Source: Planctomycetota bacterium (lineage in GTDB: Bacteria; Planctomycetota; UBA8108; SXIK01). Taken from it: a DNA stretch of 64,000 nucleotides. The notes under the pieces are model-generated. The model ran no database searches and had not been told where the DNA came from. It saw only the letters and a program-made list of their open reading frames with translations. Position numbers and translations under genes: made by a program. Position 1 is the first letter of the stretch. Each line of letters begins with the position of its first letter. The stretch is from NCBI GenBank assembly GCA_965223265.1, contig OZ244999.1:4091822-4155821 (forward strand), in the 5' to 3' direction. Below, piece after piece: positions 16,356 through 55,447 of this stretch.

Positions 16356-19300
16356 ATGCTTCGACCTCGACCACACATCTTCGCCGCGATCGTTTGTCCT
16401 CTCCTGTGCATCGCGCTGACAGCAGCTCTTTCCGCCGCCGACTGCAACTTCAACGGCATTGAGGATGGCGACGAGACGGCTCAGTCAACAGACCTTGACT
16501 GCAACGCCAACGGCATCCCGGACACGTGCGAGACCGCACCGCCAGCATTTAGAGCGCGGTCTGTTCTGAGCGTCGGTGGCGTCGCCAACAGCTTTCCGTG
16601 CGGTGACGTCAACGGCGACGAGATCCCTGACGTGATCGCAGGACACAATCGCGGCTTCACGGTTCTCCTGCAGCGACCGGCCGAGAGAGAATTCGACGCC
16701 ACCGACTACCCGGTCGACGGTGCCGGCAAAAAGTGGCTCCTTTTGGACGTCGACAGCGACAATGATCTCGACGTCGTCGGTGTGCAGACACGCCGCGTAG
16801 TGACATTCCTCAACAATGGCGAGGCCGAGTTTGCGGGTCCCGTCGATACCGAGTTCGACTCGGGAGTTGAGTCGTTCGCCGCAGGCGACATCGATGCAGA
16901 CGGCATCGTTGACGTAGTGCTCACGAATCGGGTCCGCGACCAGGTCTCCGTTTTGTTCGGCCGCGGCGATGGCCGATTCGATCGCGCCGCCCATACGGCC
17001 GTCGGAGAGTTCCCACTCGCGGTGGCTATCGCCGACCTCGACGGCGACGGCGACCTCGACGTTGCGACCGCCAACCGCGATGGCAACAGCGTCACGCTCC
17101 TCTCCAACGATCAAGGCGAGCTGGGTGAACGACAGGACGTCCAGGTCTCTGGGAGCTCACCGCAAGCCATCGTCGCCGCAGACTTCGGCGGCACGTCGCT
17201 TCCCGAACTGGTTGTTGGCACTCTTTCTTCGACGCTACTTTTGGAGAATCGAGGCGGCGAGCTGACACCAAGAGACCTGACGGTCGGCCTCGGGATTCAG
17301 CAACTCAGCGTCACGGACGTCAACGGTGACGGAAAGGACGACATCGTTGGCAGCATTCTCGACCCGCGCGCGTTCTGGACACTGACGTCTCTCGACGCAG
17401 GTGAATTCTCCCTCCACTCCTTCAATCTTGGAGACCGGCCGGAGGCGACCGAGGGCTGTGACCTCGACGGCGATGGCGACAGCGAGCTGTGTCTCGGCTT
17501 CTTCGGACTCGAGACGGTGAACGTGCTCTGGAACGATGACAGCGTCGAGCGCAACTTTCTTTCGTTCGGCGCTCCTGAGTTTTACGAGGCGGGCGGAAGA
17601 CCGCACACCGCCGGCACGGCTGACTTCAACGGTGACGGACACCTCGACCTCGTCACCGGCAACAATCGCAACAGCTCGACGGGTATGTCGGTCTACATCA
17701 ATCGCGGCGATGGAACGTTTCTACCTCGCGCGCACTACAACTCCATCGCCAGATCGTTCGCGATGGTCGTCGACGATTTCGACTTAGACGGCCACCTGGA
17801 ATTCGCGGTGGCAGACCCCTCGCAGAATAAGCCGGACATCGGCGTCATGCGAAACCGAGGCGACGGCACGTTCGTCTCCAGCCATACGCACAATTTGACG
17901 GGAGGTGCGTTTCACGTCACATCAGGAGATCTCGACGGCGACAGTTTTCCTGACCTCGTTGCGTCGATGCAGGGTGTCGGTGCTGTCGCGCTACTCTTCA
18001 ATGCTGGAGACGGCACGTTCACGAACGTCACCGACATTCGCGTTGGCGCCCGTCCCGTGAGCGCCGCAGTGGTCGACGTGGACGATGACGGACACCGCGA
18101 CATCGCTGTAGCGACGCTTTCTGGGGGTGGGATCGATTTGCTTCGGGGTGATGGCAGCGGGCTCTTCTCAGATCCCGAGAGGTTTCCGTTGGCCAACTCG
18201 CCTTCGTTCGTGATTGCGGTCGACATGAACGTCGACGGAGCTCCGGATCTCGTCACCGTGAGCGAATCGGGACAGAACGCGACGGTTCTATGGAATCAAG
18301 GACGGGGAGGATTCTCGGCCTCGCAGCCGTGGCCGCTGCGGACAAAGCCCTATTCGGTCCTCGAGGGTGACATGAACGCCGACGGCTTGCCAGATATCGT
18401 TGCGCTCAGTGAGCTGATCGGGAATTTCTCGCTGCTGCTCAATGGCGGCGACATGACGTTCAGCTCTCCGATACTGCTCGGGACGGGGCCGGGGCCGCGA
18501 TACGGCGCGATCGGCGACTTCGATGGCACCGGGACGGATGACCTCATGAGTGCGAATCGCCCCGGCAACAGTATCACGGTGATCCGCAACCAAACGGATG
18601 TGGCGTCGTTTCCCGCGGCGGCGCTAGAGCTGATCTGCACGGAAAAGAACTTCCTCGATATCTCTCGCCGGGTCACCACGCGCGGTTTGACGGTACGAGC
18701 GACGAAGTACGTAGCGCCCGCGCGAGCCGACGACGCGTCGCTTCTCTCGACGCAGTACCAGAACGTCAACCGCTTCGAGCTGCACGAAGAGTTCCTCGGC
18801 GCGGTGTTCCCCGAGCGCTTCCCGTCGCTGCCGGGCGACCGCGAGTTCTACAACCAGCTCATCGGCCGCCGCGCCACGCGTGACTACTACGTCGGCGTCT
18901 TGACGCGTCGCCAAGCGGAAAGCGGCCCGCTCTACACCTTCACCGCCGTCACCGACACCGGCTTCAGCGTCGGCGAGATTCTCGAGCAAGAGGAGCTCGA
19001 AGGCCTCTACACCACTCTCAAGGAGTCGTTCACTCTCGAGCCCCTTGCCTACGAGCCCGACACCGAGCTCGCCCGCCGCAAAGCCGAGACCTTCCAAAAC
19101 CCACAGTTCCCCGTCCACTTCGACGACGGCGCCGCCGGGCTCGACTACGAGCCCTACACCCTCGCCACCGGCTACGGCCGCGTGCGACTCTTGACGCTCG
19201 AAGAGTTCAACGACGCCAACGACAGCGGCACCTTCACCTTCCAGGACGTCCTCGTCGTCGATCTCGCGCCGCGCGACATCGAAGGCATCGTCGGCGGTGT

Positions 19301-21797
19301 CATCACCGCCGAGCCCCAGGGAAACCTCAGCCACGTTGCCGTGCGCACCGCGCGACGCGGCACCCCCAACGCCTTCGTCAAAGACGCCCGCGACGTCTTC
19401 GCACCACTAGAAGGCAAGCTCGTGCGCCTGCAGGTCTTCGACACCGAGTTCTTCGTCGACGAGGTCGAGCTCGAAGAGGCCCAGGAGTTTTGGGACTCCA
19501 ACCGACCGCGCTTCGAACCGCCGCCCACGTTCGACGAGCTCTACAGCGCCCTCGACTCGCTCGCAGAGATCGACCTCGACAGCGACCCCGTCAGCCGCTT
19601 CGGCGGCAAGGCGAGCAACTTCTCCAGGCTCCAGCGCCTCCTCACCGGCACCTACCAGCAGTACCAAGAGCGCGGCTTCGCCATCCCCATGCACCACTAC
19701 CTGCGCTTCATGAACGAAAACACCCTCACACTCGAGGGCGGCAGAACCCTCACCTTTCAGCAACACCTCGACGAGATCCTCGCCGCCCCCGAGTTTCAGA
19801 GCGACTCGCAGCTGCGCTTTGAGGCCCTCGATGAGTTTCGCGATCGCGTCCGAGGCGAAGGCGTCGTCGACCCAGCACTGATCGCCGCGCTCGCTGTGCG
19901 CATCGAAGAGGTCTTCGGTGACACCACCACCATGGTGCGCTTTCGCTCCTCCTCCAACGTCGAAGACCGCCTCGTCTTCAACGGCGCCGGACTCTACGAG
20001 TCCACCTCGGTCTGCGCCCAGGACACCCTCGACCCCGCCTCCCCCGACGCCTCGCACTGCGACCCGACGCGCACCAATGAACGCACGATCGAACGCGCGC
20101 TCAAGAAAGTCTGGAGCAGCCTCTGGACCTTCAGAGCTCACGAGGAGAGGACCTTCTTTCAGATCCCCCCACAGCTCGCCTCCATGGGAATCCTCTGCAG
20201 CCGAGCCTTTCTTGACGAGAGCGCCAACGGCGTCGCCTTCACCGGAAACCCCACCAGTGTCGACGACAAGCGCTACGTCATCACCGCCCAGCTCGGCGAA
20301 GAGAGCGTCGTCAGCCCAGAGCCCGGAGTCTCGATCGAGCGCAGCTTGCTGGAAGTGGCAGGCGGCCAGGTCGTGCGCATCATCCGCGATCGCTCCTCAA
20401 CTCTTGTCCCACCCGGTGAGGTCATCCTCACCGACGAGCAGCTCATCGAGCTCGGAGGCGTCATGGCGCACGCCGACGCTGCGTTCGAGCTCGACCTCGA
20501 AGGGCACCAGCGGCGTGAGGTGCTGCTCGACTTCGAGTTCAAGATCGAGCCCGACGGTTCGCTCGCGATCAAGCAGGTGCGCCCTTTCCTCATTCCGAAC
20601 ACCGCGCCGAAAACGCCCACCTTCGAGCTCGAGGTGCCTGAGGGAAGCATGGTCTGCTCAGTCTTCTCCAAGGAGCGCGTCGGACGCGAGCCGCGCCGCG
20701 AGTTCGAAACCAAGAGCACCGTGCGGCTGGTGCCCGGGGTGATCACGCTGCCGACGGCCAGTGACACGCTCTCCGGCGAGCTCTTCGCTGAGGTGCGCTT
20801 CGGAGCAGCGCAGGAACTCGCCGTGCCGCTCGAGGACGGGCTCTTTCGACTCGAGAAGGTGAGCGCCGGCGGCAGTCTGACCACCTATCGATTCAGCTTC
20901 GAGCAGACCTTTGCCCTCGGTGAGAGCGACGTGCTCGCGCTGCGCGTCTTTGGCATCGACTTTAAGGGACGCGGCGAAGTGCCGATCGAGCCCGCCGTCA
21001 CCCTCAACGACGAATACCTGACGTTCGACCTCACCATGGAAGCAGAGCTCAACGGCGAGCCCATCGCAAGCTACTCCTCATGCACCTACTCCCTCCTGCC
21101 GCAGTTCGAGCTCGCCTTCGAACTCGACGGCGGTGACTCCATCAATATCAGAGAGCGGTTCCTCGAAGCCGAGAGCTTAACGTCCACCGGACCGGCGGCT
21201 GTCGTCCACGCTGCCGTGGAGCTCGGCGGCGAGCGTCGCGTCGTCACCGACTACTGGAAACTCGTCTACACCGCACAGCGACACAACTTGGAAGTACGCT
21301 ACTGGATTCTCTTCGAGCCAGCGATCTCCGCCGCTGGACTAGCGAAACCGGTTCACGCCGTGGAGGTCGCGCCGGCCGACCGTGAAATCGTCGTGCCGCC
21401 AGGTGCGCCGCCCATCGTAAGGCGCACCGAGTCGAGCGTCACGTTCCTCGACGCTGACTTTGAGCCTATTGCAACGCCCGCCGTCATCGACTTCTCGCGC
21501 CGCACGGTCGACTCGACGGAACCGCGGTTTCGCCGCGGTGACGTCAACTCCGATGGCATCATCGACCTCGCCGATGCTCTCGCCGAGCTCAGTTATCTAT
21601 TCCGCAGTGGTGAGACACCCGTTTGCCTCAAGGCTGCCGACGCCGACGATGATGGTCGACTCAACGTCTCCGATGCGATCACGATTCTTCTGCACCTGTT
21701 TCGAGGTGCTGGGCCGCTGCCGCAGCCGGGCGTCGCATGTGGAGTCGACTCCTCGTCGGACGCACTCGCATGCGAGTCGCAAAGCGGTTGCCGATAA
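16356..21797 (+). CDS. Giant secreted multidomain protein A (1813 aa): signal peptide, Ca-binding Cys-rich motif, FG-GAP repeats, PEP-utilizing phospho-His domain, PPDK_N ATP-grasp domain, unknown beta domain, C-terminal dockerin-like domain
   Basis: MLRPRPHIFAAIVCPLLCIALTAALSA signal. DCNFNGIEDGDE / DLDCNANGIPDTCE. Many FG-GAP repeats. GGVITAEPQGNLSHVAVRTARRGTPNAFV resembles the PEP-utilizers swivel His motif. GGKASNFSRL, VRFRSSSNVEDRLVFNGAGLYES and KKVWSSLWTFRAHEER resemble PPDK_N/PEP-synthase ATP-grasp motifs. C-terminal RRGDVNSDGIIDLADALAELSYLF...DADDDGRLNVSDAITILLHLF dockerin-like. Confidence 0.85.
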   Translation: MLRPRPHIFAAIVCPLLCIALTAALSAADCNFNGIEDGDETAQSTDLDCNANGIPDTCETAPPAFRARSVLSVGGVANSFPCGDVNGDEIPDVIAGHNRGFTVLLQRPAEREFDATDYPVDGAGKKWLLLDVDSDNDLDVVGVQTRRVVTFLNNGEAEFAGPVDTEFDSGVESFAAGDIDADGIVDVVLTNRVRDQVSVLFGRGDGRFDRAAHTAVGEFPLAVAIADLDGDGDLDVATANRDGNSVTLLSNDQGELGERQDVQVSGSSPQAIVAADFGGTSLPELVVGTLSSTLLLENRGGELTPRDLTVGLGIQQLSVTDVNGDGKDDIVGSILDPRAFWTLTSLDAGEFSLHSFNLGDRPEATEGCDLDGDGDSELCLGFFGLETVNVLWNDDSVERNFLSFGAPEFYEAGGRPHTAGTADFNGDGHLDLVTGNNRNSSTGMSVYINRGDGTFLPRAHYNSIARSFAMVVDDFDLDGHLEFAVADPSQNKPDIGVMRNRGDGTFVSSHTHNLTGGAFHVTSGDLDGDSFPDLVASMQGVGAVALLFNAGDGTFTNVTDIRVGARPVSAAVVDVDDDGHRDIAVATLSGGGIDLLRGDGSGLFSDPERFPLANSPSFVIAVDMNVDGAPDLVTVSESGQNATVLWNQGRGGFSASQPWPLRTKPYSVLEGDMNADGLPDIVALSELIGNFSLLLNGGDMTFSSPILLGTGPGPRYGAIGDFDGTGTDDLMSANRPGNSITVIRNQTDVASFPAAALELICTEKNFLDISRRVTTRGLTVRATKYVAPARADDASLLSTQYQNVNRFELHEEFLGAVFPERFPSLPGDREFYNQLIGRRATRDYYVGVLTRRQAESGPLYTFTAVTDTGFSVGEILEQEELEGLYTTLKESFTLEPLAYEPDTELARRKAETFQNPQFPVHFDDGAAGLDYEPYTLATGYGRVRLLTLEEFNDANDSGTFTFQDVLVVDLAPRDIEGIVGGVITAEPQGNLSHVAVRTARRGTPNAFVKDARDVFAPLEGKLVRLQVFDTEFFVDEVELEEAQEFWDSNRPRFEPPPTFDELYSALDSLAEIDLDSDPVSRFGGKASNFSRLQRLLTGTYQQYQERGFAIPMHHYLRFMNENTLTLEGGRTLTFQQHLDEILAAPEFQSDSQLRFEALDEFRDRVRGEGVVDPALIAALAVRIEEVFGDTTTMVRFRSSSNVEDRLVFNGAGLYESTSVCAQDTLDPASPDASHCDPTRTNERTIERALKKVWSSLWTFRAHEERTFFQIPPQLASMGILCSRAFLDESANGVAFTGNPTSVDDKRYVITAQLGEESVVSPEPGVSIERSLLEVAGGQVVRIIRDRSSTLVPPGEVILTDEQLIELGGVMAHADAAFELDLEGHQRREVLLDFEFKIEPDGSLAIKQVRPFLIPNTAPKTPTFELEVPEGSMVCSVFSKERVGREPRREFETKSTVRLVPGVITLPTASDTLSGELFAEVRFGAAQELAVPLEDGLFRLEKVSAGGSLTTYRFSFEQTFALGESDVLALRVFGIDFKGRGEVPIEPAVTLNDEYLTFDLTMEAELNGEPIASYSSCTYSLLPQFELAFELDGGDSINIRERFLEAESLTSTGPAAVVHAAVELGGERRVVTDYWKLVYTAQRHNLEVRYWILFEPAISAAGLAKPVHAVEVAPADREIVVPPGAPPIVRRTESSVTFLDADFEPIATPAVIDFSRRTVDSTEPRFRRGDVNSDGIIDLADALAELSYLFRSGETPVCLKAADADDDGRLNVSDAITILLHLFRGAGPLPQPGVACGVDSSSDALACESQSGCR

Positions 21798-21898
21798 GCC
21801 CGCCGGAGAACGCGGCGCCAGAGCGCGAGTTGCCACTGGCGAACACCGGGGACCTCAATGGCTGGATCAACGCGAGAACGGGCGGTTATGCTGGTGGC

Positions 21899-34576: not shown

Positions 34577-34747
34577 TTCGATGAGAAAACGTCACACAGT
34601 GAACGCAGGACAACACCCCGACTAATCGTTCGTTTTTTGTTGCGCCGACTCAGATCCACCTCTAGTCTTGGCCTACTGTGTGTCTGCACGTGCCGTGGGC
34701 ATGTGTCCGAGGCCTCAAACACGGGGGACCAAGCGGGAGGGCGCTTC

Positions 34748-37347: not shown

Positions 37348-39456
37348 TCAAAACTGACAGCTCTTCGGCTGGGCGCCGCACCCCATCGCATTGTCGGCCT
37401 CGAGTGTTGCGGGCCCGCACTCGGGGAATGGAGCAACCGGCTCCGCGCTGCCAGCGACGAAGAGGAACGATAACAGCGTGATCGGATCCGAGATGTCGAC
37501 ACCGTCGTCGCCGTTGACATTGAGCGCGGCTCGGCAACCCGGCTGCGACGGTGTGCTGGAGAAAAGAACGCTCAGCATGCAGATCGCATCGGAGATGTCA
37601 GCGACGCCGTCGTCATTACAGTCGCCACGACTGAACGCGAGTTGTGGTCGAGACTTCTCGAACTGCTGAGCAAGCTCGTCCGCCATACCGAACCAAGACT
37701 GAGCCACGTTCGGTCCCAGAATCCTTCGATCTACGGCGGACATAACCTCGTCCACGAACCGGCGCAAGGCGTCAGCTAAGCCATTATCGTCGCCCCGCTC
37801 GACGGCGAGCGCCGCGAGCTCGATTTCGCGTGCGAGAAGGCGCACGTCGTTCGGCTCGAGAAACGGCGCTGCAAGGATTTCGCGCAGGAGGGCTTGAGTG
37901 ATCGAATCAAGTGTGCGCGTCTGCTTCGCCACCCAGCCGTTCGAGAAACCGAACGCACCGCTATCTGGCGTGGCCTCGAGGAGAGCCCCGCGCGTCGTCG
38001 GAAAGTTCGACGACCATGTGAACCCGCTGGCGTACGCATTCCCCGTCTCGTCAACAGAAATGCTCGTGCCGTAATCGCGCGGGCCGGCGATCAGAAACCC
38101 GCCCAGGTTCCCGCCAAGCGTCCGTGAGGAGTCCAGCGTTCGACCACTGGCGGAAACGACCGTCAGGAATGCGTCTGCTTCGCTGTCGATGAGACCGTTG
38201 TCGACGGCCAGGGTCGGGAACCCCGGCCTTCCGACGCCAGTGACGTATGCACGACCAAGACGATCGACGTCGATTTCGTAGCCGACATCAGCGTTGCCGC
38301 CGCCCAAGTAGGTCGAATATCGCAAACGGCGTGCATCGGTGGAAAGCTTCGCGACCCAGGCATCAGAGCCAGTGCCTGAGGCGCAGCCGCACTCACTCTG
38401 GTACGCGTAATCGGTGATGGGAAAGTTGGTCGAGGTCGTGGATCCGGTTGCGTAGATGTTACCGTCGCTATCAAGCGCCAAGTCATAGATGTCGTCGGAG
38501 CGCGAGCCGCCCAGGTAGGTCGAAAAGACAAGCATGTTGAGCCCGATCTTCGACGGATCGATTTTGGCGATCCAGGCGTCGCTGCCACCTGCGGACTCCT
38601 CCGCGTAGACACCGACGGTCGTCGGGAAACCACCTTGCGAACTCCCGCCGACATAGAAGAATCCGCGTTCATCCACTGCAACTCCCCTGGCGATGTCGCG
38701 CCGGTCGCCGCCGAGATAGAAGCCGCTGACCTGAGCGCCACTCTCGTGGAGCAGAGCGACGAAGGCGTCGGTATCGCCGTTGAACGTGAAGTCGTAGCCG
38801 AATTCCGTCACGGCGAAGTCTCCATCCGTGTCGCCGACGATCATGACGCGCCCTCTGGAATCCACGGCGATGTCGAACGCCTCGTCGTCCCCCGCCCCAC
38901 CGAGGTACGTCGAGTAAACGATCCTCGTCGCGTCTGCGGTTAACTTGACGACGAAAGCATCACGCGGTGCCCACTCCTCAGAAGGATCCGTGGCGCCACC
39001 ACCGAGCTCTGCCTGATGCGCGTTCACGGCCGGAAAATCACCTGAACGAGTCGATCCGGTCACGTAGATGCTACCGTCCAATCCGACCGCAGCACCGGAG
39101 CTCAGGTCGTGACCGCTCCCGCCGACGAAAGAGCCGCCGAGAACGTTTCGGCCGTCGGGGGTGAGGCGCAGGACGAAGACGTCGCTCTGCCCGCAGTTTC
39201 CGAAGCCATCGCAGCCGTCACGGCCGATGGCTCCCATCAAATCCGCTGAGCTCGTGGAACCGACGACGACAACGTTGCCGTCCGGCGCCACCACGACGGC
39301 AGACACTTCGTCTCCTGCGCCACCACCGAAGTATGTACTGAACTCGATCTCCGCCGTGAGACGATGACCGGTCAATGCGATGATCAACAGAGCTGAGAGC
39401 GCGGCGGCAAGCGGGTGACCCGGGCGGGAGGTTGCGGGCAGGCTTGAACGAAACAT
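37348..39456 (-). CDS. Secreted SBBP-type beta-propeller-repeat protein with C-terminal dockerin-like domain (tandem paralog 1)
   Basis: Signal MFRSSLPATSRPGHPLAAALSALLIIALTGHRLTA. Repeated YSTYLGG...DxAxxIAVD blades. C-terminal RGDCNDDGVADISDAICMLSVLF...NVNGDDGVDISDPITLLSFLF. AAGGAGA Shine-Dalgarno sequence before the ATG. Confidence 0.8.
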   Translation of the reverse strand: MFRSSLPATSRPGHPLAAALSALLIIALTGHRLTAEIEFSTYFGGGAGDEVSAVVVAPDGNVVVVGSTSSADLMGAIGRDGCDGFGNCGQSDVFVLRLTPDGRNVLGGSFVGGSGHDLSSGAAVGLDGSIYVTGSTRSGDFPAVNAHQAELGGGATDPSEEWAPRDAFVVKLTADATRIVYSTYLGGAGDDEAFDIAVDSRGRVMIVGDTDGDFAVTEFGYDFTFNGDTDAFVALLHESGAQVSGFYLGGDRRDIARGVAVDERGFFYVGGSSQGGFPTTVGVYAEESAGGSDAWIAKIDPSKIGLNMLVFSTYLGGSRSDDIYDLALDSDGNIYATGSTTSTNFPITDYAYQSECGCASGTGSDAWVAKLSTDARRLRYSTYLGGGNADVGYEIDVDRLGRAYVTGVGRPGFPTLAVDNGLIDSEADAFLTVVSASGRTLDSSRTLGGNLGGFLIAGPRDYGTSISVDETGNAYASGFTWSSNFPTTRGALLEATPDSGAFGFSNGWVAKQTRTLDSITQALLREILAAPFLEPNDVRLLAREIELAALAVERGDDNGLADALRRFVDEVMSAVDRRILGPNVAQSWFGMADELAQQFEKSRPQLAFSRGDCNDDGVADISDAICMLSVLFSSTPSQPGCRAALNVNGDDGVDISDPITLLSFLFVAGSAEPVAPFPECGPATLEADNAMGCGAQPKSCQF

Positions 39457-39894
39457 GTCATTTCTCCTTGGAAGTCGTGAACCAGTGCAACGGGACGCGC
39501 CACGCGTCCTCACGCACCTGGGGGCGACAACGGCGGGTCGATTGGCTCACGGTTTTTGTGAGAATCTTGATTCCGCCTCGACCGGGGCGGCGGGCGGAGC
39601 TCCTCGTGCCGCAGGAAGATCACCTTAGCGCTTGCGGCGTAAAGACTTAGCTCCTGGGTGAGGGGGATGAAGCAGAGGCAGATACAGATCGCGCTTGGTG
39701 AGGCTTGTCGATGTGCCGTGTTCGACCAATTCGGACCATCGACCGAACTGGCGTCCGTTGGTGACCCGCGTCCTCCACGCACGCGCACACGGAGAGGCTG
39801 TGAAGGTTTAACACGTGCCGTCAAAACTTGCGCTCCGCACGGTCGCCTCCCGAACGGCACGAATTCTTTAACTGCTGTTGCAGCTCGCAGACAT

Positions 39895-39984
39895 CCGGAA
39901 CGGCACACGGCGTGTGCCTGCTACTATAAAGACGTCACCGATACGCTTTTCAAAGTAGCAGGCACACGCCGTGTGCCGTTCCGG
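39895..39984. repeat. Perfect 31-bp inverted repeat (arms 39895..39925 and 39954..39984, 28-bp spacer). Each arm contains a nested 8+1+8 palindrome.
   Basis: ccggaacggcacacggcgtgtgcctgctact ...28 nt... agtagcaggcacacgccgtgtgccgttccgg, read directly. Related copy at about 26286..26350 and a partial arm at about 40026..40040. Coordinates may be off by 1. Confidence 0.85.
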
Positions 39985-40164
39985 AGAGTTGCGACGGCAA
40001 GTTTCGAAAACTTCACAGCCTCGGAGTGTGCCTGCTACTTGAGCACTCGCACACCCGCACCCACGCTCACACCCACACGCACACCGAGTCCAAGACGCCT
40101 ACACGACAGAGCAGAACGTCAGACTCCGCGCTGGTTCCCGTCGACTGTGCTTTCCCCGCAAAGC

Positions 40165-42294
40165 TTAGAATTCACAGCTCTTTGGCCGCGTGGCGCAGCC
40201 GACCGCACCGTCGGCATCGAGTGTTGTCGGTCCGCACCAAGGAAACGGAGCTACCGGCGGTGCGCTGTCGGCAACGAAGAGAAAATTGAGCAGCGCGATC
40301 GGATCCGAGATATCGACGCCGGCGTCACCGTTGACGTTCAGCGCAGCCTGGCAGATCGGCTCCGAGCCAGTGTTGGTGAACAGTGCGTTCAGCGTGCAAA
40401 CCGCATCAGAGATGTCAGCGTCACCGTCGTCGTTGCAGTCGCCACGACGGAGGATGATCGCTGGCAGCGACTTCTCAAGCTGCAGCGTCATTTCGCTGAG
40501 CAAATCAAGCCAGGCCTCCGCCGCGCTTGGGGTCAACCTGCGCTCATCCACAACCGTCTCGACCGCAATTGCGAACCGCCGCAGCGCGTCGAAAAACTCG
40601 TCGAGGTCGCCGCGCTCAGCAGCCAGAACGGCGAGTTCGATCTCTCGGGCCAGGAGACGGACGTCTTCGGGTTCGAGAAAGGGTCCCGCTTCGACTTCAC
40701 GCGTGAGAGCGTCGCTCACCGAGTGCAGGTCGCCGCGCGCCTGCTTCACAAGCCAACCGTCGAAGTAACCAACGGAACCATCATCCGCAGGCTCCTCAAG
40801 AAGAGCGCCGCTCGTCGTCGGGAAGTTCGAAGACCACGAGAGTCCACCAGCGTAGACGCAGCCGCCCTCATCGACCGCGATGCTCCTGCCGAGATCGAGC
40901 GGCTCTAAGAGGAAACCCCCGCCCTCCGCCCCTCCCAGAGTCCTCGACGACTGGAGTGTTCGCCCGGTAGCGGAGACGACGGCGATGAACGCATCTCCCT
41001 TAATGTCGATGAAGCTATTCTCCGGGGGGACCGGAAATCCCGGTCGTGCGGCTCCGGTAACGTATGCCCTGCCAAAGCTGTCCACGTCGACTCGCTTGCC
41101 AGTGTCAGCACCGCCGCCGCCCAAATAAGACAAATAGACGAGTGCACGCCCGTTGGCGGAGATCTTTCCGACCCAGGCGTCCGCCCCACTTTCAGGAGAG
41201 AGATCGCAGCCGCACTCACGCTGAAACGCAAAGTCCGTCACGGGAAGGTCGCTCGAGGCGGTGTCGCCCGTCGCGTAGATATTCCCATCCGGGCCGATCT
41301 CGAGACCAAAGATGTGATCCGGTCCCGTGCCGCCCAGATATGTCGAAAAGACGAGCATGTTGAGACCGATCTTCGTCGGGTCGATCTTGGCGACCCAACC
41401 GTCGACGCTGCCGATTCTGTTCTCCTCGTAGACGCCGGTCGTGGTCGGAAACCCTCCCTCGGTATCTCCACCAACGTAAAAGAAGCCCTGCGCATCTACG
41501 GCAGCGCCTTGGGCCGTATCTTCGCGATCACCGCCGAGATAGAAACCACTGTACTGGACGCCGTTTTCGAGGAACAGAGCGACGAACCCGTCGGTACGTC
41601 CACCGTTGTATGTGAAGTCGAAGCCGAATTCGGTCACTGCAAAATCGCCATCCGTTGCGCCGACAATCATGACGCGTCCCTGGGGGTTGACGGCGATGTC
41701 GAATGCCTCGTCGTTTCCCGGACCGCCGAGATAGGTCGAGTAGACGATGGTCGTCGCGTCCGCGGTCAGCTTGACGACAACGGCGTCCCGCGGCGGTTGC
41801 TCTTGAGAAGGGTCTGTTGCCCCGTCGCCAAGCTCGCTCTGATGCGCCGCGACGGTCGGAAAGTCACCCGATCGAGTGAATCCCGTCACGTAAATGCTGC
41901 CATCGGCACCTATGGCCACGCCCGTGGCTTCGTCGAAACTGCTGCCACCGATGCGGCTCCCGCCCTCCAAAATCTGACTTCCGTCTGGACTGACCCGTAG
42001 GACGAAGATGTCGCCCTGGCCACAGTTTCCGAAGCTGTTGCACCCCTCCTGCGTCAAGACCCCCATCACACTTTCCGAACTGCTGGTACCGACGACAACC
42101 AAGTTGCCGTCCGGTGCCACAGCGACCGCGTTGATGGTGTCGCCGGAAGGGCCACCGAAGTAGGTACTGAAGTCGATCTCCGCGGCGACGAGGCGGAACA
42201 CGCCGAGCCCAGCAGTTCCAGCCGTGAGTGTTACCAGAATGACCGCGAGCCGGCGAAAGTGAACAAGTGAGGGCATGGTTGACGCACAGAGCAT
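40165..42294 (-). CDS. Secreted SBBP-type beta-propeller-repeat protein with C-terminal dockerin-like domain (tandem paralog 2)
   Basis: Same architecture as 37348..39456 at about 55-60% identity. Signal MLCASTMPSLVHFRRLAVILVTLTAGTAGLG. Dockerin RRGDCNDDGDADISDAVCTLNALF...NVNGDAGVDISDPIALLNFLF. AAGGAGA Shine-Dalgarno sequence before the ATG at 42294. Confidence 0.8.
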   Translation of the reverse strand: MLCASTMPSLVHFRRLAVILVTLTAGTAGLGVFRLVAAEIDFSTYFGGPSGDTINAVAVAPDGNLVVVGTSSSESVMGVLTQEGCNSFGNCGQGDIFVLRVSPDGSQILEGGSRIGGSSFDEATGVAIGADGSIYVTGFTRSGDFPTVAAHQSELGDGATDPSQEQPPRDAVVVKLTADATTIVYSTYLGGPGNDEAFDIAVNPQGRVMIVGATDGDFAVTEFGFDFTYNGGRTDGFVALFLENGVQYSGFYLGGDREDTAQGAAVDAQGFFYVGGDTEGGFPTTTGVYEENRIGSVDGWVAKIDPTKIGLNMLVFSTYLGGTGPDHIFGLEIGPDGNIYATGDTASSDLPVTDFAFQRECGCDLSPESGADAWVGKISANGRALVYLSYLGGGGADTGKRVDVDSFGRAYVTGAARPGFPVPPENSFIDIKGDAFIAVVSATGRTLQSSRTLGGAEGGGFLLEPLDLGRSIAVDEGGCVYAGGLSWSSNFPTTSGALLEEPADDGSVGYFDGWLVKQARGDLHSVSDALTREVEAGPFLEPEDVRLLAREIELAVLAAERGDLDEFFDALRRFAIAVETVVDERRLTPSAAEAWLDLLSEMTLQLEKSLPAIILRRGDCNDDGDADISDAVCTLNALFTNTGSEPICQAALNVNGDAGVDISDPIALLNFLFVADSAPPVAPFPWCGPTTLDADGAVGCATRPKSCEF

Positions 42295-42800
42295 GTGGTT
42301 CTCCTTGGCGGGTAGCAGACCGCTAGACAGGAATGCACTCCGCGTGCCTCGCTCTTGACGAGTCAACGAGTCGCGCATTCGCTCCTGGCCTTGCTGCACA
42401 AACACGTGAGTAGAAATCAAATGGCCTAAGCGCATCCCCCTCCGCACGCCGCTCGATCCTTGCAGCATTCTGCCATAAAACGTGAGCGCACGGGCCCAAG
42501 AACCGGGGCGACCGCCTGTCTGATGACGACGGAGAGTAATCCGCGGCGGCCGAGCGAGCTCCGTTCCTCTTTCTGATGGACCGTCGCGACCTGTCTGTAT
42601 CGCGAGCGCGAACTCGTCATGACTCAACGCACGTCCTGCTACCGCAGCGGGTGCCAGCGTCTGACCACCGCGGACGCATCAACCACTGCCGCAACAGAGT
42701 CCGGGCTTCACGACAGCGTGCAAGAGAACGCGTGGGACGATGTCGATCCACCATCGAAGGCCGACGTGAGTCCGCCCCTGCCCTTGCGCTCGAGCTCAAC

Positions 42801-47739: not shown

Positions 47740-50700
47740 TCAATCGCACGGCGCGTATGACGCGCAATCGAGCGCATCCGCGGTGAGATCGCGACCGCAA
47801 AACGGAAACGGGGGCGCGATTCCAGCTTCGCCGCCGAAGAGATGCAGCAGGACCCTGATCGGATCGGAGACGGTCAAACGCCCGTCATCGTCAACGTCTG
47901 TGGACTTGAGACAACTCGGGATGAGGCCATCGCGAAAAAGGAACTCGAGCGCGTAAATCGCATCGGCGAGTTGTATGTCGCCATCAGCGTTGGCGTCGCT
48001 GCGGCGAAATCGGACATCTATCGCAGTGTCCGTGAGCCGCTGAAACGCGTTCACTTCAACCGCCGCGATGACCTGAAAGTCGCTGTCGAGATAGGCCGCG
48101 GCCGGGTTCGGCATGATCGGCGGCTCGGGTGCGGCGAGTTCAATTGCCCGCACCGGTCGTTCAACGAGCGCCAAATCGATCGGCGGATCAAAGACGATGA
48201 GATACTTCACGAAAGTATTGTGACGAAATGACGCATAGACGAGATTCCAGTAGTCCGCCACACGCAGATACGCTGATTCCGCAGCGACTTCGGCGGCGAC
48301 CAAGCTTGCCGGTCCGGTGCGACTTGGGTCTGGGCTAGGGATCGAGCGCTCTCGCAACCTCAGGCTCGTGCCATCCGCGAGTTCGGCCTCGATCGCCCAG
48401 AGGTCGAGAAGTTCGTAGGTGCACGACGAATACGCCACGCGCAGTGCGGCATCGCCGTCCGAGAATCCGGTCATGAAAAGCTCGTCGGTGATGAACTCTT
48501 CGTCAAGGATGACCTCACCGCGCTGCGGAACGCCGCCGGCAGCGCTAAACTCGACGTCGTCCAGGGTCACGACGAATGTTTCCCCGGCCGTACCTGGCAA
48601 GCTGAAGCGCTGCTCGTAGGTAAAACGATAAAGTGTCTCGCCGCCCGCACCGGGCCGTTTCGTCGCGCGCATTCGCCCGCGGCCGAGCGGCGTCGCTGTC
48701 ACCTGCGCAGGCCCAATCAGCACTTCGTCGATCAGGTCTAAACTGATCGATCCGGTCCGCCCGGCAAGCTCGAAGGTACCTGCACGCAGTCGTACGCGGC
48801 TCTTCGACGCCAGTCCGACCAAAGGGTCTTCTTCCGGAGCATTGACGTCGAGGACACCGCAGACGCTCGTCTCAGCGGGAATCTCCAGGACAAACATCGG
48901 CGTCGGTTGCCGCTCGGAGGTCAAGAGGAATGGCCGCACCTGCTTGACCGCCAGATCGCCGCTTGCTTCGATCTTGAACTCAAGGTCGAGCAAGACGTCG
49001 TCACGATCATGTTCGCCAAGAACGACGGGGAAATTCTGGTCCATGTGCCACATGACGGCGCCGAGCTCGCGGAGCGCCGCGTCGGTCATGACCAACGCAT
49101 CGCTCTCCACGAGCGTCGAACGCGTGGCGCGGATGATCTCCACGACCTCGCCGTCGACCACGTCGAGGAGCGTTTTCTCCGGCAACACGCCGGGTTCGGG
49201 ACTGACGACACTCTCCTCGCCAACTTGTGCTGTGACGACAAAGCGCCGGTCGTCAGGGTTCGCCGGGTCGCCAGTGAACGCGACGCCGTTGACCCGCTCG
49301 TCGAGGAAGGCGCGATTGACCAGAATGCCCATCGCGGCACTCGCCTGGGGAATCTGAAAAAAGGCGCGCTCTTCGTGGGCACGAAAAGTCCACAGGCTTG
49401 TCCACACCTTCTTGAGCGCACGCTCAAGCGTACGCTCGTTCGATTTGCTCGCGTCACAAAGCGATGGTCCCTCGTCATCACCGTCGAGCTGATCGGCTAG
49501 GCACGCTCCCGTGGACTCGTAGAGGCCAGCGCCGTTGAACTCGAGTAGGTCCTCGACGTTCGACGACGAGCGAAAACGGATCGATGTAGTCGCAGAAAAA
49601 ACTTCTTCGATACGGCTCCGCAGCAAAGCCAGAAGCTCGGGTGAAACCACGCCGGTGTCGCGCGCGACGTCGCGAAACGCCTGCAGCGCTTCAAAGCGCC
49701 GTCGTGAATCCGTTTGAAAATCCTCGAGCGTTGCGAGCTCGGTAAGAAACTCCTCGTACGAGACCTGACGGCCCGGATCGACCGGCGATGCCGTCCGGTT
49801 CCCCCGCATGAACTCCGTGTAGTAGCGTACGGGGATCGCGAAGCCTTTCTCGCGGTAGTCGGCAAACACTCCATCGAGAATCGTCTGCAGACGCGCGAGA
49901 TTGCTCGCCTTGCCGCCAAAGCGGGACTCCGGCAAGCCGCCCAGATCGAAGTCGGTGAGACGGTCCAGCGCTGCGTAGTTCGCGTCGAACGGCGGCAGGG
50001 CTGGCAACTGCGGTCGGTTCTCCTGCCAAAACGCCTCGGCGTCGGACAAATCCGCCGGGCTGACCTCGAACGAACTCTCGGTCACCTCGAGGCGGATCAA
50101 CTGATCGTCGAAAGGCGAGAAGCGTGCGCGCGCGTCCGCGACGAACGCGTTTGGCGTTCGTCGGCGCGCGGTGCGTACGGCAACGTGGCTCAAGGTTCCT
50201 TGTCGAGAACCGGTGATGACGCCGCCGACCACTCCCTCGATGTCACGAGGTGCTTCGTCGATGACGAGGACATCCTGAAACGTGAAAGCACCCGCTGCGT
50301 TCGCCGCCTCGAACTCCTCGAGCGTCAGCACCCTCACGCGCCCGAAACCGACTCCCGTCGTGTAAGCCTCAAAGTCGACAGCAGGGCCGGTATCGATGTC
50401 CAGAAGCACCTCAAATCCTGGATTCAACCAGCTTTCGGCGGTCTCTCGCGCAATCGGCGTATCCGGTAGATACGCAAGCGGCTGCAAGCTGATCGACTCG
50501 CGCAGGCGGTCGTACACATCCTTGACCTCAGCGACACCCAGCGCTTCGGACGCGCCGCTCCCGGTGTCAGCAACGACAGTAAAGGCATACACAAATGCGC
50601 CATCCGAGCGCAGTCGCTTGAGCGAACCGACATAGTAGTCGCGCGTCGCTCGGAGGCCAACCAATCGGTTGTACTCGGCTGGCCCCAGCGCCGGGAAGCG

Positions 50701-53160
50701 TTCAGGAAACACGCTAGCGAGGAAATCCTGATGCAGCTGGAAACGATGCGTGTTTTGGAAGGCCGTCGTCAGCAGCGCAGCATCGTCTCGCGCCGGAAGC
50801 ACGAACTTCGTTTCGCGCTCGCCCACAGCGCGTCGACGAGACGGGACGGCGACGCTGCGAAAATCGTTTTGCGTGCAGAGGCGAGGCAGGAAGTCGACAG
50901 TCGCAGGAAACTCCGTCGCGTTGTGCGACACGATGAGTTGGTTGTCCTGTCGATTCATGACGAGAAGATCGATCTTGCCGTCCTGATCGATGTCTTCGGA
51001 GACAGCGTACCGCGGCCCACTGCTGACCGCGCTGATCTGAACGGCTTCGACGAACGCATGAAGCGGTTCGGCAAACGTGCCATCGCCCCGGTTGACGAAA
51101 AGCGCCAGGCCGAGCGAGATTTCGTTCGACGTGACGAGGTCAAGGTGCCCATCTCCGTTGTAGTCTCCGGAGGTCATGGAGTACGGCAACTGCCGCACCG
51201 GATAGGTCCGCACAGTCTCGAATCGCAGCCCGCCGCGATTCTCCACCACCGCCATTTCTTGTTCGTTTTGGTTCGATGCCGCCAGGTCGTCGTCACCGTC
51301 GCCGTCCCAATCGCCCGCGACGACGAAGCTCGTACGCCCGAACGTCTCAATCGAACCAACGTGCTCGAAGGACGCGGAACCGTCGTTCGCCAGGATCTCC
51401 AGTTTGCCGGCTCCATTCGCGGCGACGAGGTCAAGGTCATGGTCGGCATCAAAGTCGCGTGCAACGACGCCCAGGAAGCGCCCCGGGATTCTGATGATGT
51501 CGACGCGCGGAAACGTGCCATCGCCGGCGTTGTGCAAAATCGTCACCGACGCGCCGCTGTCGGCGGTGATCACTTCGGGCCGTTCGTCACCGTTTAAATC
51601 GGCAGCGATGGCGTAAAACGGATCCACCCCACCAATGTAGTAGGCGCTCGATTCAAAGGTGCCGTCCGCATAGTTCAGCATGATCTCGGTGCGCCTGTCG
51701 TTCAAAAACGGCGACGCCACGTCGATGCTCCCGTTGCCGTCGAAATCGGCGGTCACGATAGAATTCGGATAGCCGTCGGCCGGTCGCGTCGCAGCCACCG
51801 AAAAAGCGCCTCTCCCGTCGTTGAGCAAGTAACAGGTAATGAACGCCCCGCCATGCCCGAACACGACGTCGAGGTCGCCGTCCTGATCGAGGTCGGCCAG
51901 CGATGGCGGCGAGTGCGGACGACTACCGCCTTCGTAAATGCGACTCACAAAACTTAACGCGCGGCCGTTCATCAGCATGCCGATCGAATCCGGGACTCGC
52001 TTCGCGACGCCAACGTCGATCGCCCCGTCGCCGTTCAGGTCGCCCGTTGCCACCCAGACCGCTTCTCCCTCCACGGCCACGTCGCGGCGCGCTTGAAAGC
52101 TGCCGTCGCCGCGGTTGACGAGCACGGCGACGGAGCGCGGTTCAGTTCCCACGATGACGTCCGTCGAACGATCGGAGTTGATATCGCCGACGCCGATGCA
52201 GCGGCCTTGAATCGCGAACGTTGCGTGCTCCTCCAAACGCCGTTCGGAACGGCTCGCGGTGAGCACGACCACGCCTTCCGCTGCCATCAAGGCGATGTCG
52301 TCGACCGAGTCGCCCGACACGTCCGCAACGGCAAACGTACGTGGATTCCCAACCGCCACAGACGCCGCGGTCTCTTCAAACCCGGCGTCTTCGCTTCCCC
52401 AAAGGACCGTGACGCCTGACGGCAGCAGGGCGGCGACGTCCTGCAGGCCATCCGCATCAAAGTCGCCACACGCGAGCGCCGCGATGTCCCCCACCATGTC
52501 GCGGGCCGCTAGCGGCGGTTCGAAAGTGCGTCCTTCGACGCCGCGAGCGACAAACAGCGCCTCGGATCCAAACCGCGCCAAGAGAAGGTCCTTGATGCCG
52601 TCGCGATCAACATCCGTGACCGCCACGGTCCGGGCGCCCTCAAAAGCGAACGAATCTGGCGTCCGTGGAAAGCTGCGTTCGCCGTCGTTCCACAAAATGA
52701 ACACCGCGTTCGGTTCCACATTGACGACGTCGAGAAACCCGTTGCCGTCGAGGTCGGCGACAACGAGGTCGATCGTGTCGGCACCGAGGCGACGGTAGGT
52801 CGGAGTTCCGACCACACCGTCCTCGTCTTGAAAAAAAATCCCGATCGTCGAACCCGCAGGACCGAGCGCGGCACTCATGAGATCGCTACGGCCGTCGCCG
52901 TCGAAGTCATGAACTGCGACGCGACGCGGGATGCCGCGCTGCTTCAGTCCGGGCACCGTCAAACCGAGCTCGAGCATGCCGAGCTCGCACTCGTCGGGTA
53001 CGCCGTCACCGTTACAGTCCTCGCTCGCGCTCGTGGCAAGGTCCATAGCGTCGTCGACACGGTTGCCGTTACAGTCAACGGCAGTCACAAACTCGACAGA
53101 GGCGAAAACGAACGTCGCCACAAGGACGTGGAGCGCCGCACAACGCGCTGATTCTTGCAT
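47740..53160 (-). CDS. Giant secreted multidomain protein B (~1806 aa), paralog of 16356..21797 with the same architecture
   Basis: Signal MQESARCAALHVLVATFVFASVEFVTA with GGAG Shine-Dalgarno sequence before the ATG at 53160. DCNGNRVDD / EDCNGDGVPDECE. FG-GAP repeats. GGVITGSRQGTLSHVAVRTARRRTPNAFV. GGKASNLARLQ, IRFRSSSNVEDLLEFNGAGLYES, KKVWTSLWTFRAHEER. C-terminal RRSDANADGDIQLADAIYALEFLF...DVDDDGRLTVSDPIRVLLHLF. Confidence 0.85.
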   Translation of the reverse strand: MQESARCAALHVLVATFVFASVEFVTAVDCNGNRVDDAMDLATSASEDCNGDGVPDECELGMLELGLTVPGLKQRGIPRRVAVHDFDGDGRSDLMSAALGPAGSTIGIFFQDEDGVVGTPTYRRLGADTIDLVVADLDGNGFLDVVNVEPNAVFILWNDGERSFPRTPDSFAFEGARTVAVTDVDRDGIKDLLLARFGSEALFVARGVEGRTFEPPLAARDMVGDIAALACGDFDADGLQDVAALLPSGVTVLWGSEDAGFEETAASVAVGNPRTFAVADVSGDSVDDIALMAAEGVVVLTASRSERRLEEHATFAIQGRCIGVGDINSDRSTDVIVGTEPRSVAVLVNRGDGSFQARRDVAVEGEAVWVATGDLNGDGAIDVGVAKRVPDSIGMLMNGRALSFVSRIYEGGSRPHSPPSLADLDQDGDLDVVFGHGGAFITCYLLNDGRGAFSVAATRPADGYPNSIVTADFDGNGSIDVASPFLNDRRTEIMLNYADGTFESSAYYIGGVDPFYAIAADLNGDERPEVITADSGASVTILHNAGDGTFPRVDIIRIPGRFLGVVARDFDADHDLDLVAANGAGKLEILANDGSASFEHVGSIETFGRTSFVVAGDWDGDGDDDLAASNQNEQEMAVVENRGGLRFETVRTYPVRQLPYSMTSGDYNGDGHLDLVTSNEISLGLALFVNRGDGTFAEPLHAFVEAVQISAVSSGPRYAVSEDIDQDGKIDLLVMNRQDNQLIVSHNATEFPATVDFLPRLCTQNDFRSVAVPSRRRAVGERETKFVLPARDDAALLTTAFQNTHRFQLHQDFLASVFPERFPALGPAEYNRLVGLRATRDYYVGSLKRLRSDGAFVYAFTVVADTGSGASEALGVAEVKDVYDRLRESISLQPLAYLPDTPIARETAESWLNPGFEVLLDIDTGPAVDFEAYTTGVGFGRVRVLTLEEFEAANAAGAFTFQDVLVIDEAPRDIEGVVGGVITGSRQGTLSHVAVRTARRRTPNAFVADARARFSPFDDQLIRLEVTESSFEVSPADLSDAEAFWQENRPQLPALPPFDANYAALDRLTDFDLGGLPESRFGGKASNLARLQTILDGVFADYREKGFAIPVRYYTEFMRGNRTASPVDPGRQVSYEEFLTELATLEDFQTDSRRRFEALQAFRDVARDTGVVSPELLALLRSRIEEVFSATTSIRFRSSSNVEDLLEFNGAGLYESTGACLADQLDGDDEGPSLCDASKSNERTLERALKKVWTSLWTFRAHEERAFFQIPQASAAMGILVNRAFLDERVNGVAFTGDPANPDDRRFVVTAQVGEESVVSPEPGVLPEKTLLDVVDGEVVEIIRATRSTLVESDALVMTDAALRELGAVMWHMDQNFPVVLGEHDRDDVLLDLEFKIEASGDLAVKQVRPFLLTSERQPTPMFVLEIPAETSVCGVLDVNAPEEDPLVGLASKSRVRLRAGTFELAGRTGSISLDLIDEVLIGPAQVTATPLGRGRMRATKRPGAGGETLYRFTYEQRFSLPGTAGETFVVTLDDVEFSAAGGVPQRGEVILDEEFITDELFMTGFSDGDAALRVAYSSCTYELLDLWAIEAELADGTSLRLRERSIPSPDPSRTGPASLVAAEVAAESAYLRVADYWNLVYASFRHNTFVKYLIVFDPPIDLALVERPVRAIELAAPEPPIMPNPAAAYLDSDFQVIAAVEVNAFQRLTDTAIDVRFRRSDANADGDIQLADAIYALEFLFRDGLIPSCLKSTDVDDDGRLTVSDPIRVLLHLFGGEAGIAPPFPFCGRDLTADALDCASYAPCD

Positions 53161-53424
53161 ACTCACTCCGCGAACAACCTCGGCTAGTCTCACCGCACAC
53201 AATTGTAACGGACGCCTCGGCGATTCAGCTCACTGTTCGTCGAGAAACATCGACGTACGCAGCCGAACGTTCCGTCTCCACCTGAAGGAGACTGGGAGAC
53301 ACCGTACACCTCAGTCGCGATCAAAGATTATTCGATCGTCCGAAGTCCTCGCTTCCCGTAGCATGAAGGCGAAGCGCTCGCGAGCCATCAGCGCTCGGAA
53401 CACTCGAGTCTATCAGGTAGCTCC

Positions 53425-54280: not shown

Positions 54281-55144
54281 TCAGTTACAACCTTGGTGCG
54301 CATCTTCCGAGATTTCGTTGGGGCCGATCGACGCGCTCCAGGGTCCAGCGTCAGCGCACTGGTCGTTGTCGGGATTGCCATCGATGAAGATGTCTGGGTC
54401 CAGTGACAGCACGGCGCGGAAAGAGACTGACGGCGGCGCTTCGTACAGCGGCCACGATCTGTCGTAAGAAACCTGTAGACTCGCGCCCACGTCTAACTCC
54501 GTGAAGTCGAGACGTGCGACCTCCCGCGGACTTGAACCCGACACCTCTTCGTAAAGTATGAAACTCTGCTGCCCAGGGCGCGAACGAAACGGTGCGGCAC
54601 CAATGTTGAGTAAGTCCGCGGTGACGCGGATCGCGGCGAAGTCGGCGAAGCATTGAGTGCTGCGGACGATGATTCCACTGACTTCGAGCGCCGGACATCC
54701 CGCGGGACCGCATTCACTCTCGAGCGCACAGGTGAGTCCATCCGGGGTGGGGTCGAATCCGCAATCACCCACTGGGGGTGGTAAGACCGGTGAACCGAGA
54801 AACAGAAAGCCGAGCAAAGCGAGCGGGTCGGAGATGTCGAGGATACCGTCGTCATTGGCGTCGGCCGCATCGAAACAGCCGCGGGCGGGGGAACCCGCTA
54901 CGAAGAGAAAATTGAGCGTGAAGAGCGCGTCCGACACATCGGCGTCGCCGTCACGGTTAGCGTCGCCGCGCTCAAAGGAATGATTCAGCAGTCCACCATC
55001 GGGGAGAGGCCCGATGTCTGGAATTTCGATTGGCGGCTCGAAAATGCCAGGATCGAAGATCTGCGCACTCAGTGACGGGAACACGAAAGCAGCGAAGAGA
55101 AGAACGGCGGCGAGGAAACGCGGGTGCGAGGGGGAGTGACGCAT
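54281..55144 (-). CDS. Secreted protein with N-terminal dockerin-like domain and an unknown C-terminal beta domain
   Basis: Signal MRHSPSHPRFLAAVLLFAAFVFPSLSA. ERGDANRDGDADVSDALFTLNFLF...DANDDGILDISDPLALLGFLF. ORF opens at 55357; the Met at 55144 was chosen. Confidence 0.65.
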   Translation of the reverse strand: MRHSPSHPRFLAAVLLFAAFVFPSLSAQIFDPGIFEPPIEIPDIGPLPDGGLLNHSFERGDANRDGDADVSDALFTLNFLFVAGSPARGCFDAADANDDGILDISDPLALLGFLFLGSPVLPPPVGDCGFDPTPDGLTCALESECGPAGCPALEVSGIIVRSTQCFADFAAIRVTADLLNIGAAPFRSRPGQQSFILYEEVSGSSPREVARLDFTELDVGASLQVSYDRSWPLYEAPPSVSFRAVLSLDPDIFIDGNPDNDQCADAGPWSASIGPNEISEDAHQGCN

Positions 55145-55447
55145 GAGCTGTGTCCTTTCCGTCTGGTTGGGTTTTCCTGACACGTCGCCGCTGCGACGTT
55201 CACTCCTCCAGGGACACGGGGCGGCGCATCTGTAACGCGGTTTCTTTGTTTTTCCGTCGCGGCCGCGGCAAACGCTACAGTCGGAACGCTGCATTCGATG
55301 GCACAACGACTTACGCCGTCCACCTGGGGGCGAGCAGGCACGCCCGTGCCAGCTCACCGCAGCCTCGAAGGCCGCCGCCCCTGCCGCGAGGCTGCGTCAA
55401 GCCGCCCTGGAGTGGGTGAGGCGGAGGTCCTTGTCTGTCAGCCTCGA

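Follow-up and report, generated by a model that had tools for sequence, protein, structure and literature searches.

Plant enzymes of the GWD1 and PWD/GWD3 types (EC 2.7.9.4 and 2.7.9.5) carry a phosphohistidine domain directly upstream of a C-terminal PPDK_N domain, are devoid of a PEP/pyruvate TIM-barrel, possess a long N-terminal non-catalytic region, which is presumed to bind the target, and show an LSHV..R motif around the His. The same traits are found in gene B, the gene considered here, which is located in a window (the whole stretch of DNA that was analysed) of 64,000 nucleotides from a Planctomycetota bacterium (assembly GCA_965223265.1, contig OZ244999.1). Gene B, however, is bacterial, contains FG-GAP propellers instead of CBM45 or CBM20, does not have the CFATC redox motif and adds a predicted Sec signal, a beta-barrel C-domain and a dockerin. 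We know of no solved structure for the plant glucan,water dikinases. In potato GWD1, the catalytic His resides in the phosphohistidine domain, and the catalytic domain is C-terminal (PMC12892837, PMC6243121). Rifampin phosphotransferase (RPH, PDB 5HV1/5HV6) is a cytoplasmic enzyme with the order ATP-grasp, rifampin-binding domain, His domain, whereas gene B shows no similarity to the rifampin-binding domain and an identity to RPH of 17-19%. PEP synthase and PPDK are arranged as ATP-grasp, His and barrel; in gene B the order is reversed and the TIM barrel is missing.

Two further systems should be considered for the parts outside the catalytic module and for the size of the proteins. Cellulosomal type I dockerins consist of a duplicated Ca-binding loop-helix fold, which is also present in the C-terminal module of gene B; the latter differs by extra conserved cysteines and a Cys-rich tail, and in this window dockerin-like modules are also found in N-terminal and internal positions of other proteins. 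No cohesin domain was found by Pfam in the window ORFs scanned. In the giant proteins of Omnitrophota, the 'Archaeovorins', for which an action on other cells has been proposed, PPDK_N is among the frequent domains whose predicted localization was counted (bioRxiv 10.1101/2023.11.21.568195). By domain content, the likeness consists in the presence of PPDK_N in very large proteins with predicted extracellular regions from PVC-group or neighbouring phyla; the difference is that the Archaeovorin domains are embedded in proteins of more than 30,000 aa.

Based on the comparisons presented here, we regard it as probable that gene B is functional and belongs to a large and old family with an 'X,water dikinase' core, which would be exported and tethered, and that its placement relative to its paralog in the same window, gene A, is incidental. 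The enzyme kind as such is known; new is an uncharacterised, apparently exported GWD-like variant, and the truly odd point is that an ATP-grasp dikinase appears to leave the cell interior. To our knowledge, one would not expect bacteria to carry out ATP-dependent phosphotransfer outside the cytoplasm.

Architecture of gene B

The open reading frame of gene B spans 47740..53202 on the minus strand, and the ATG at 53160 renders a product of 1806 aa, whose parts are collected in Table 1. The predicted layout comprises a signal peptide, two FG-GAP beta-propellers, the N-domain, the phosphohistidine domain with His992, PPDK_N, a beta-barrel C-domain and the dockerin. FG-GAP_3 was matched in 10 stretches (Pfam, E=6e-61), and 14 DxDxDG-type motifs with a spacing of ~48 aa are distributed between residues 85 and 723; the 14 blades probably, and most simply, form two 7-bladed beta-propellers. 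A carbohydrate-binding module was not recognised by Pfam in gene B, the N-terminal region being made up of FG-GAP repeats. The PPDK_N match covers residues 1080-1418 (Pfam, E=8e-14), and the PEP/pyruvate domain PF02896 gave no Pfam match. The N-domain is a candidate for the acceptor-binding or second catalytic site. Judged from its sequence, gene B is intact and looks functional, and it encodes a 1,800-residue propeller-dikinase-dockerin protein, which is predicted to be exported.

Table 1. Positions of gene B, its parts and the related features in the window
Feature	Position	Strand	Residues	Basis or remark
Gene B, whole CDS	47740..53160	(-)	1806 aa + stop	ORF list and translation; colinear with gene A and P0241
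Predicted Sec-type signal peptide, MQESARCAALHVLVATFVFASVEFVTA	53080..53160	(-)	1-27	Read from sequence
Short Cys/Asp-rich N-terminal motif (DCNGN...DCNGDGVPDECE)	52936..53079	(-)		Found in gene A, gene B and P0241
FG-GAP/VCBS repeat region, 14 blades	50926..52935	(-)	~76-745	Pfam and DxDxDG spacing
N-domain of the core, alpha/beta	50281..50925	(-)	746-960	Without known family
Swivelling phosphohistidine domain	49966..50280	(-)	961-1065	His992 codon at 50185-50187
PPDK_N ATP-grasp nucleotide-binding domain	48901..49965	(-)	1066-1420	Cys-bracketed insertion (C...GPSLCD)
C-domain, all-beta	47986..48900	(-)	1421-1725	Without known family
C-terminal dockerin-like module	47743..47985	(-)	1726-1806	Cys-rich tail at the end
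Gene A, paralog	16356..21797	(+)	1813 aa	Six-part architecture as in gene B; translation, BLASTP, Pfam, alignment, dockerin HMM
Dockerin-bearing genes between A and B (3 of ~17)	34637-36409, 37348-39513, 40165-42627			Family dockerin HMM

Catalytic residues and domain order

Gene B shows the features of the His-swivel dikinase superfamily, namely a PPDK_N ATP-grasp domain, in which the nucleotide and Mg motifs are conserved, and a beta/beta/alpha swivel domain, whose invariant His is located at the N-terminus of a helix. This residue is His992, the His of GTLSHVAVR, found at the start of a helix in the predicted structure of the swivel domain and invariant in all 85 aligned family members. The same holds true for the ATP-grasp signatures GGK, RxRSSS..ED and DxExK...KQxRP (85 of 85 sequences), whose residues align to the PEP synthase motifs when PDB sequences are searched with a profile, and the Cys pair of the ATP-grasp insertion is nearly invariant in this set. 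In that search only the ATP-grasp domain and the dockerin were matched, and the N-domain, the His domain and the C-domain found no matches among the PDB sequences.

Amongst the Pfam phosphohistidine models, GWD1_pHisD (PF22973) is the only one with any match in the family (4 of 46 members, best E 5.5e-4), and its match to gene B itself (E=0.058, 13.4 bits) lies below the cut-off of 27; PF00391, the PEP-utilizers model, matches none of the 46. The first-pass annotation had called the catalytic module permuted, which is correct in relation to PEP synthase and PPDK, but the arrangement is nothing special, as it is the order of the plant glucan,water dikinases. The succession of His domain and PPDK_N without a barrel supports a GWD-type way of working, whereas membership in the GWD group is not established, because the PF22973 match is sub-threshold and neither CBM45 nor CBM20 is present. 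Starch or glycogen gene context was not found in the window ORFs scanned. An identity as PEP synthase or PPDK was rejected on account of the reversed order, the missing TIM barrel, the all-beta C-domain and low scores of the NCBIfam PEP synthase models (15-27 bits, with cut-offs of at least 598). Rifampin phosphotransferase was likewise rejected, with 18.4 bits for NF041857 against a cut-off of 999 and another domain order.

Nevertheless, structural comparison brings this enzyme back into consideration with regard to the acceptor. In structure, the ATP-grasp domain is most similar to rifampin phosphotransferase and HpeI, and the C-domain resembles avidin/calycin-like and Diels-Alderase-type barrels, that is, small ligand-binding barrels more than carbohydrate-binding modules. 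Such avidin/calycin-like and Diels-Alderase-type barrels bind small hydrophobic ligands. The same chemistry could thus be directed to a small molecule (an antibiotic, a lipid, a phenolic or another xenobiotic), as in enzymes of the rifampin phosphotransferase or phenylphosphate synthase type, rather than to a glycan, and the lack of a detectable carbohydrate-binding module in gene B points in the same direction. A small-molecule acceptor stays in play on account of the barrel-like C-domain and the resemblance to rifampin phosphotransferase and HpeI; the propellers, the dockerin and the analogy to GWD, on the other hand, favour a polymer or surface glycan, and we consider the small-molecule alternative rather unlikely.

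Divergence of genes A and B

Aligned by BLASTP, gene B and gene A render one colinear alignment (residues 25-1805, 1174 bits, E=0, 41% identity), and the global alignment gives 43% overall. Along this global alignment, identity is highest in the His domain (60%) and in PPDK_N (58%), amounts to 56% over the whole catalytic module, 53% in the dockerin, 51% in the N-domain and 39% in the C-domain, and is lowest in the FG-GAP region of the propellers (32%). Four motif pairs are common to both proteins (B/A in each case): GTLSHVAVRTARRRTPNAFV/GNLSHVAVRTARRGTPNAFV, GGKASNLARLQ/GGKASNFSRLQ, IRFRSSSNVEDLLEFNGAGLYES/VRFRSSSNVEDRLVFNGAGLYES and KKVWTSLWTFRAHEER/KKVWSSLWTFRAHEER. The earlier description of gene B as a divergent paralog of gene A with the same architecture and set of motifs is thereby borne out, as is the statement that the propellers are less similar than the catalytic module; only the identity of 60-65% given for the module was slightly too high. 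A similarity confined to the low-complexity FG-GAP repeats can be dismissed, since it is strongest in the catalytic module, with truly common motifs.

In the catalytic module of A and B, pN amounts to 0.27-0.31 and pS to 0.52-0.70. With pN far below pS, the data are consistent with long purifying selection on the module; the dN/dS ratio itself, which had been proposed as a check, is uninformative, because synonymous sites are saturated and only the inequality of pN and pS can be used.

Each of the two proteins is closer to proteins of other genomes than to the other. Gene B and its ortholog-like relative P0241, a protein of 1800 aa, are 57.5% identical over their full length with 8 gaps (70% in the module), gene A and its own such relative P0245 share 51% identity, and even L002 from another MAG is more similar to gene A (42.8%, 1253 bits) than gene B is. 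A and B do not pair as sisters in a neighbour-joining (NJ) tree built from 29 full-length members. For this reason they do not constitute a recent pair, and from their sequences we read them as two long-separated lineages of an old multi-copy family, not as a local or recent duplication. The source genome probably holds at least three copies, the third of which, P0022, is without propellers. The SufB encoded in the window shares 87% identity with the SufB of a Planctomycetota MAG, in support of the assignment to this phylum. Close relatives of gene B, sought for synteny and inversion, were not found in metagenome contigs.

The distribution of identity also bears on whether the module works at all. 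A protein with so many binding-type modules (propellers, dockerin) could be an adhesin, in which the catalytic module is retained as a non-catalytic binding relic, and the scarcity of extracellular ATP would fit such a pseudoenzyme. This is hardly credible to us, because the catalytic residues are invariant: the phosphohistidine candidate and all ATP-grasp motif residues are kept across 85 diverse members. In addition, the module is the best conserved part of the protein, both between A and B, where the propellers have diverged much further, and between gene B and P0241, where it exceeds the identity of the whole protein.

A large family mainly of uncultured Planctomycetota

The catalytic module was found in at least 575 proteins of a 90%-clustered collection; nearly all come from Planctomycetota MAGs, and their most specific annotation is 'PEP/pyruvate-binding domain-containing protein'. 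When 1.84 billion representatives, each standing for a 50%-identity cluster, were searched exhaustively with phmmer, 857 of them reached E<=1e-30; of the 100 best matches, about three quarters are proteins of ~1800 residues with the module at ~750-1430. More than 555 family loci were confirmed in GTDB species genomes, and several MAGs have at least six copies; beyond the Planctomycetota, the family is represented in Verrucomicrobiales, Omnitrophota, Myxococcota, Chloroflexota and Kiritimatiellae. In the 79 related loci inspected, the complete architecture, from the propellers through the N-domain, His domain, ATP-grasp and C-domain to the dockerin, is present in 29 of ~69 family genes, the others being without propellers or dockerin. 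Literature searches found no publication describing the family, which, as far as its sequences allow us to judge, is large, old, multi-copy and uncharacterised, with its centre in mainly uncultured Planctomycetota.

The first-pass annotation had argued that a module conserved across an old duplication is functional and not a decayed fusion. The conclusion holds, given the conservation, the invariance of His992 and of the ATP-grasp residues and the excess of pS over pN, but the argument understates the case, as the wide conservation of the ~1800-aa architecture, which recurs in dozens of MAGs, is far stronger evidence of function than the conservation between A and B alone.

According to a hydropathy heuristic, 78 of the 88 family members with complete N-termini contain a strongly hydrophobic segment within the first 55 residues, and some members have lipoprotein-like LxGC boxes. 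Together with the conserved Cys pair and the dockerin, this leads us to predict that the family of gene B is exported. A conserved gene neighbourhood that might hint at a pathway was not detected across the 79 related loci beyond the synteny among close MAGs; what looked like the largest 'neighbour cluster' consisted of antisense shadow ORFs located within the family gene itself.

Possible mechanism and acceptor

By analogy with plant glucan,water dikinase and rifampin phosphotransferase, the core of gene B most likely is an 'X,water dikinase'. The ATP-grasp domain would bind ATP and transfer the beta-phosphate to His992, whereupon the His domain would swing to a second site, probably in the N-domain and perhaps in the C-domain, and phosphorylate a hydroxyl of the acceptor, with AMP and Pi being released. 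The propellers and the dockerin may tether the enzyme to a surface or to its target. For the acceptor, our leading guess is a glycan of the cell surface or of the environment.

If the enzyme is active outside the cytoplasm, the source of ATP becomes the question. Supply of ATP there is not obvious, and a different donor, compartment or site of action could be involved. Because of this problem an effector acting in another cell has to be weighed: gene B might be an exported effector or toxin, attached by propellers and dockerin, which phosphorylates a target in a prey or competitor cell with the ATP found there, and the supply problem would then be solved. Family modules are indeed found inside giant proteins of 3617 aa (L076, from a Kiritimatiellae MAG), 3336 aa and 6419 aa, and PPDK_N is frequent in the giant Omnitrophota proteins (bioRxiv 10.1101/2023.11.21.568195). 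Across the 79 related loci, however, translocation domains and genes for immunity or secretion systems are not found consistently next to family members, and the family combines a high copy number with stable orthologous lineages, which makes an effector improbable in our view.

Returning to a tethered dikinase with a polymeric acceptor, one may go a step further and speculate, tentatively and with more doubt than conviction, that the hundreds of members form an undescribed class of exported and surface-tethered ATP-dependent dikinases, which phosphorylate extracellular or periplasmic polymers such as glycans in Planctomycetota and neighbouring phyla. Plant starch phosphorylation would then have a bacterial counterpart beyond the cytoplasm, and a pool of usable nucleotides would have to exist there. 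Irrespective of the acceptor, attention should be drawn to a family of at least 857 clusters at 50% identity, which is apparently exported and whose best-conserved part is the ATP-grasp and phosphohistidine engine. Were these proteins active where their signal peptides and dockerins suggest, uncultured Planctomycetota, which are abundant, would possess a hitherto unrecognised way to modify polymers or small molecules outside the cell. The family would also offer models of the GWD-type catalytic unit that are bacterial and probably easier to work with.

Placement of the two genes in the window

Genes A and B converge, their 3' ends being separated by 25.9 kb, and three genes between them as well as three ORFs outside carry the same dockerin-like module, which the family dockerin HMM detects in 8 ORFs of the 64 kb. 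From such an arrangement one could conclude that a local inverted duplication encloses a 26-kb island of genes that are secreted or dockerin-bearing, and that it may also invert or co-regulate this island. The protein identities and the tree discussed above already speak against it, since neither gene is the closest relative of the other. At the DNA level, A and B are 54% identical and share no exact match longer than 17 nt. In inverted orientation, the two best matches cover 68 nt (84%) and 75 nt (76%); stretches this short do not suffice for homologous recombination and provide no substrate for a homologous inversion. Two family genes within ~20 kb were encountered in only one of the 79 related loci, and there they are arranged in tandem.

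The content of the interval does not resemble an island either. Its ~17 genes include those for a glyoxalase, a patatin, a sulfatase, an MFS transporter, an NTP-transferase, a MetE-like protein and an HD protein, besides a dockerin-bearing metallophosphatase, two dockerin-bearing SBBP propeller proteins, an alginate-export-type porin, a Tll0287-like protein and a GH43-like protein. About half of the genes have signal-like N-termini according to the hydropathy heuristic; the rest (glyoxalase, patatin, NTP-transferase, MetE-like, MFS and HD proteins) probably serve cytoplasmic or membrane housekeeping. The bracketed block of secreted and dockerin-bearing genes claimed earlier thus survives in its opposite strands, its length and the share of signal-like N-termini, and fails in that the dockerin is restricted to three genes of a heterogeneous set. 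As three of the eight dockerin-bearing ORFs lie outside the span from A to B, the richness in dockerins is a property of this genome region and not of a bracketed island. An inverted duplication with such a role is, in our opinion, largely refuted and retains very little probability, and the inverted arrangement of A and B appears incidental, without a mechanistic role. As a second inverted copy, the A/B pair is ordinary: two members of a multi-copy family situated near each other.

Dockerin-like modules and neighbouring genes

A dockerin-like module is common to eight ORFs within the 64 kb (family HMM, E 1e-16 to 1e-31; see the table), including both propeller-dikinase genes, A and B, and its position among them varies from C-terminal to N-terminal or internal; no cohesin was detected within the 64-kb window. 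Directly upstream of gene A lies an FG-GAP repeat protein gene (837 aa), in whose product a signal-like N-terminus is followed at once by the module, and which looks like a propeller-only protein related to the N-terminal half of A and B. At its 3' end, gene A is overlapped over 61 nt by a 767-aa ORF whose GC3 (0.77) is coding-like and whose product has neither a Pfam match nor a signal-like N-terminus.

Between both dikinase genes, a purple-acid-phosphatase-like metallophosphatase is encoded, which carries a signal-like N-terminus together with the module common to A and B. SEX4 is the phosphatase counterpart of the plant glucan,water dikinase GWD, and it is pure speculation that the metallophosphatase might be such a counterpart to the dikinases here. 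At the related loci it is not a conserved neighbour of the family genes.

The gap separating the two SBBP/dockerin genes contains a long, imperfect hairpin, whose 46-nt arms are 87% complementary and enclose a loop of 18 nt; it may represent a terminator or else a repeat element. The complete suf Fe-S assembly cluster, adjoined by a 1-Cys peroxiredoxin, is ordinary chromosomal context.

Family members elsewhere

A third family member without propellers, the protein P0022 (1070 aa), was found outside the window, and the source genome probably holds at least three family copies, counting this one; SufB of the window is 100% identical to the protein P0121. Among the related loci, only L036 (Planctomycetota MAG JBFFXF010000039.1) has two family genes close together, a tandem pair on the same strand, both without propellers. 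Giant proteins also contain the module of N-domain, His domain and ATP-grasp, embedded from residue ~1000-1300 onwards.

Features of the window, related loci and giant proteins (dockerin-like modules by family HMM)
Feature	Source	Position	Strand	Remarks
Dockerin-like module ORF	window	135-713	+	
Dockerin-like module ORF	window	13299-15812	+	FG-GAP; module N-terminal
Dockerin-like module ORF	window	16356-21797	+	gene A
Dockerin-like module ORF	window	34637-36409	+	metallophosphatase
Dockerin-like module ORF	window	37348-39513	-	
Dockerin-like module ORF	window	40165-42627	-	
Dockerin-like module ORF	window	47740-53160	-	gene B
Dockerin-like module ORF	window	54281-55357	-	module internal
ORF overlapping gene A	window	21737-24040	+	
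Hairpin	window	39885-39994		
suf cluster	window	2151-8831	-	Rrf2 regulator, SufB, SufC, SufD-like, SufS, NifU-like, FeS_assembly_P protein
Tandem family genes	L036	3967-7278; 9773-13114		
Giant protein, embedded module	L076	779-11632		Kiritimatiellae MAG
Giant protein, embedded module	P0328			3336 aa
Giant protein, embedded module	P0331			6419 aa
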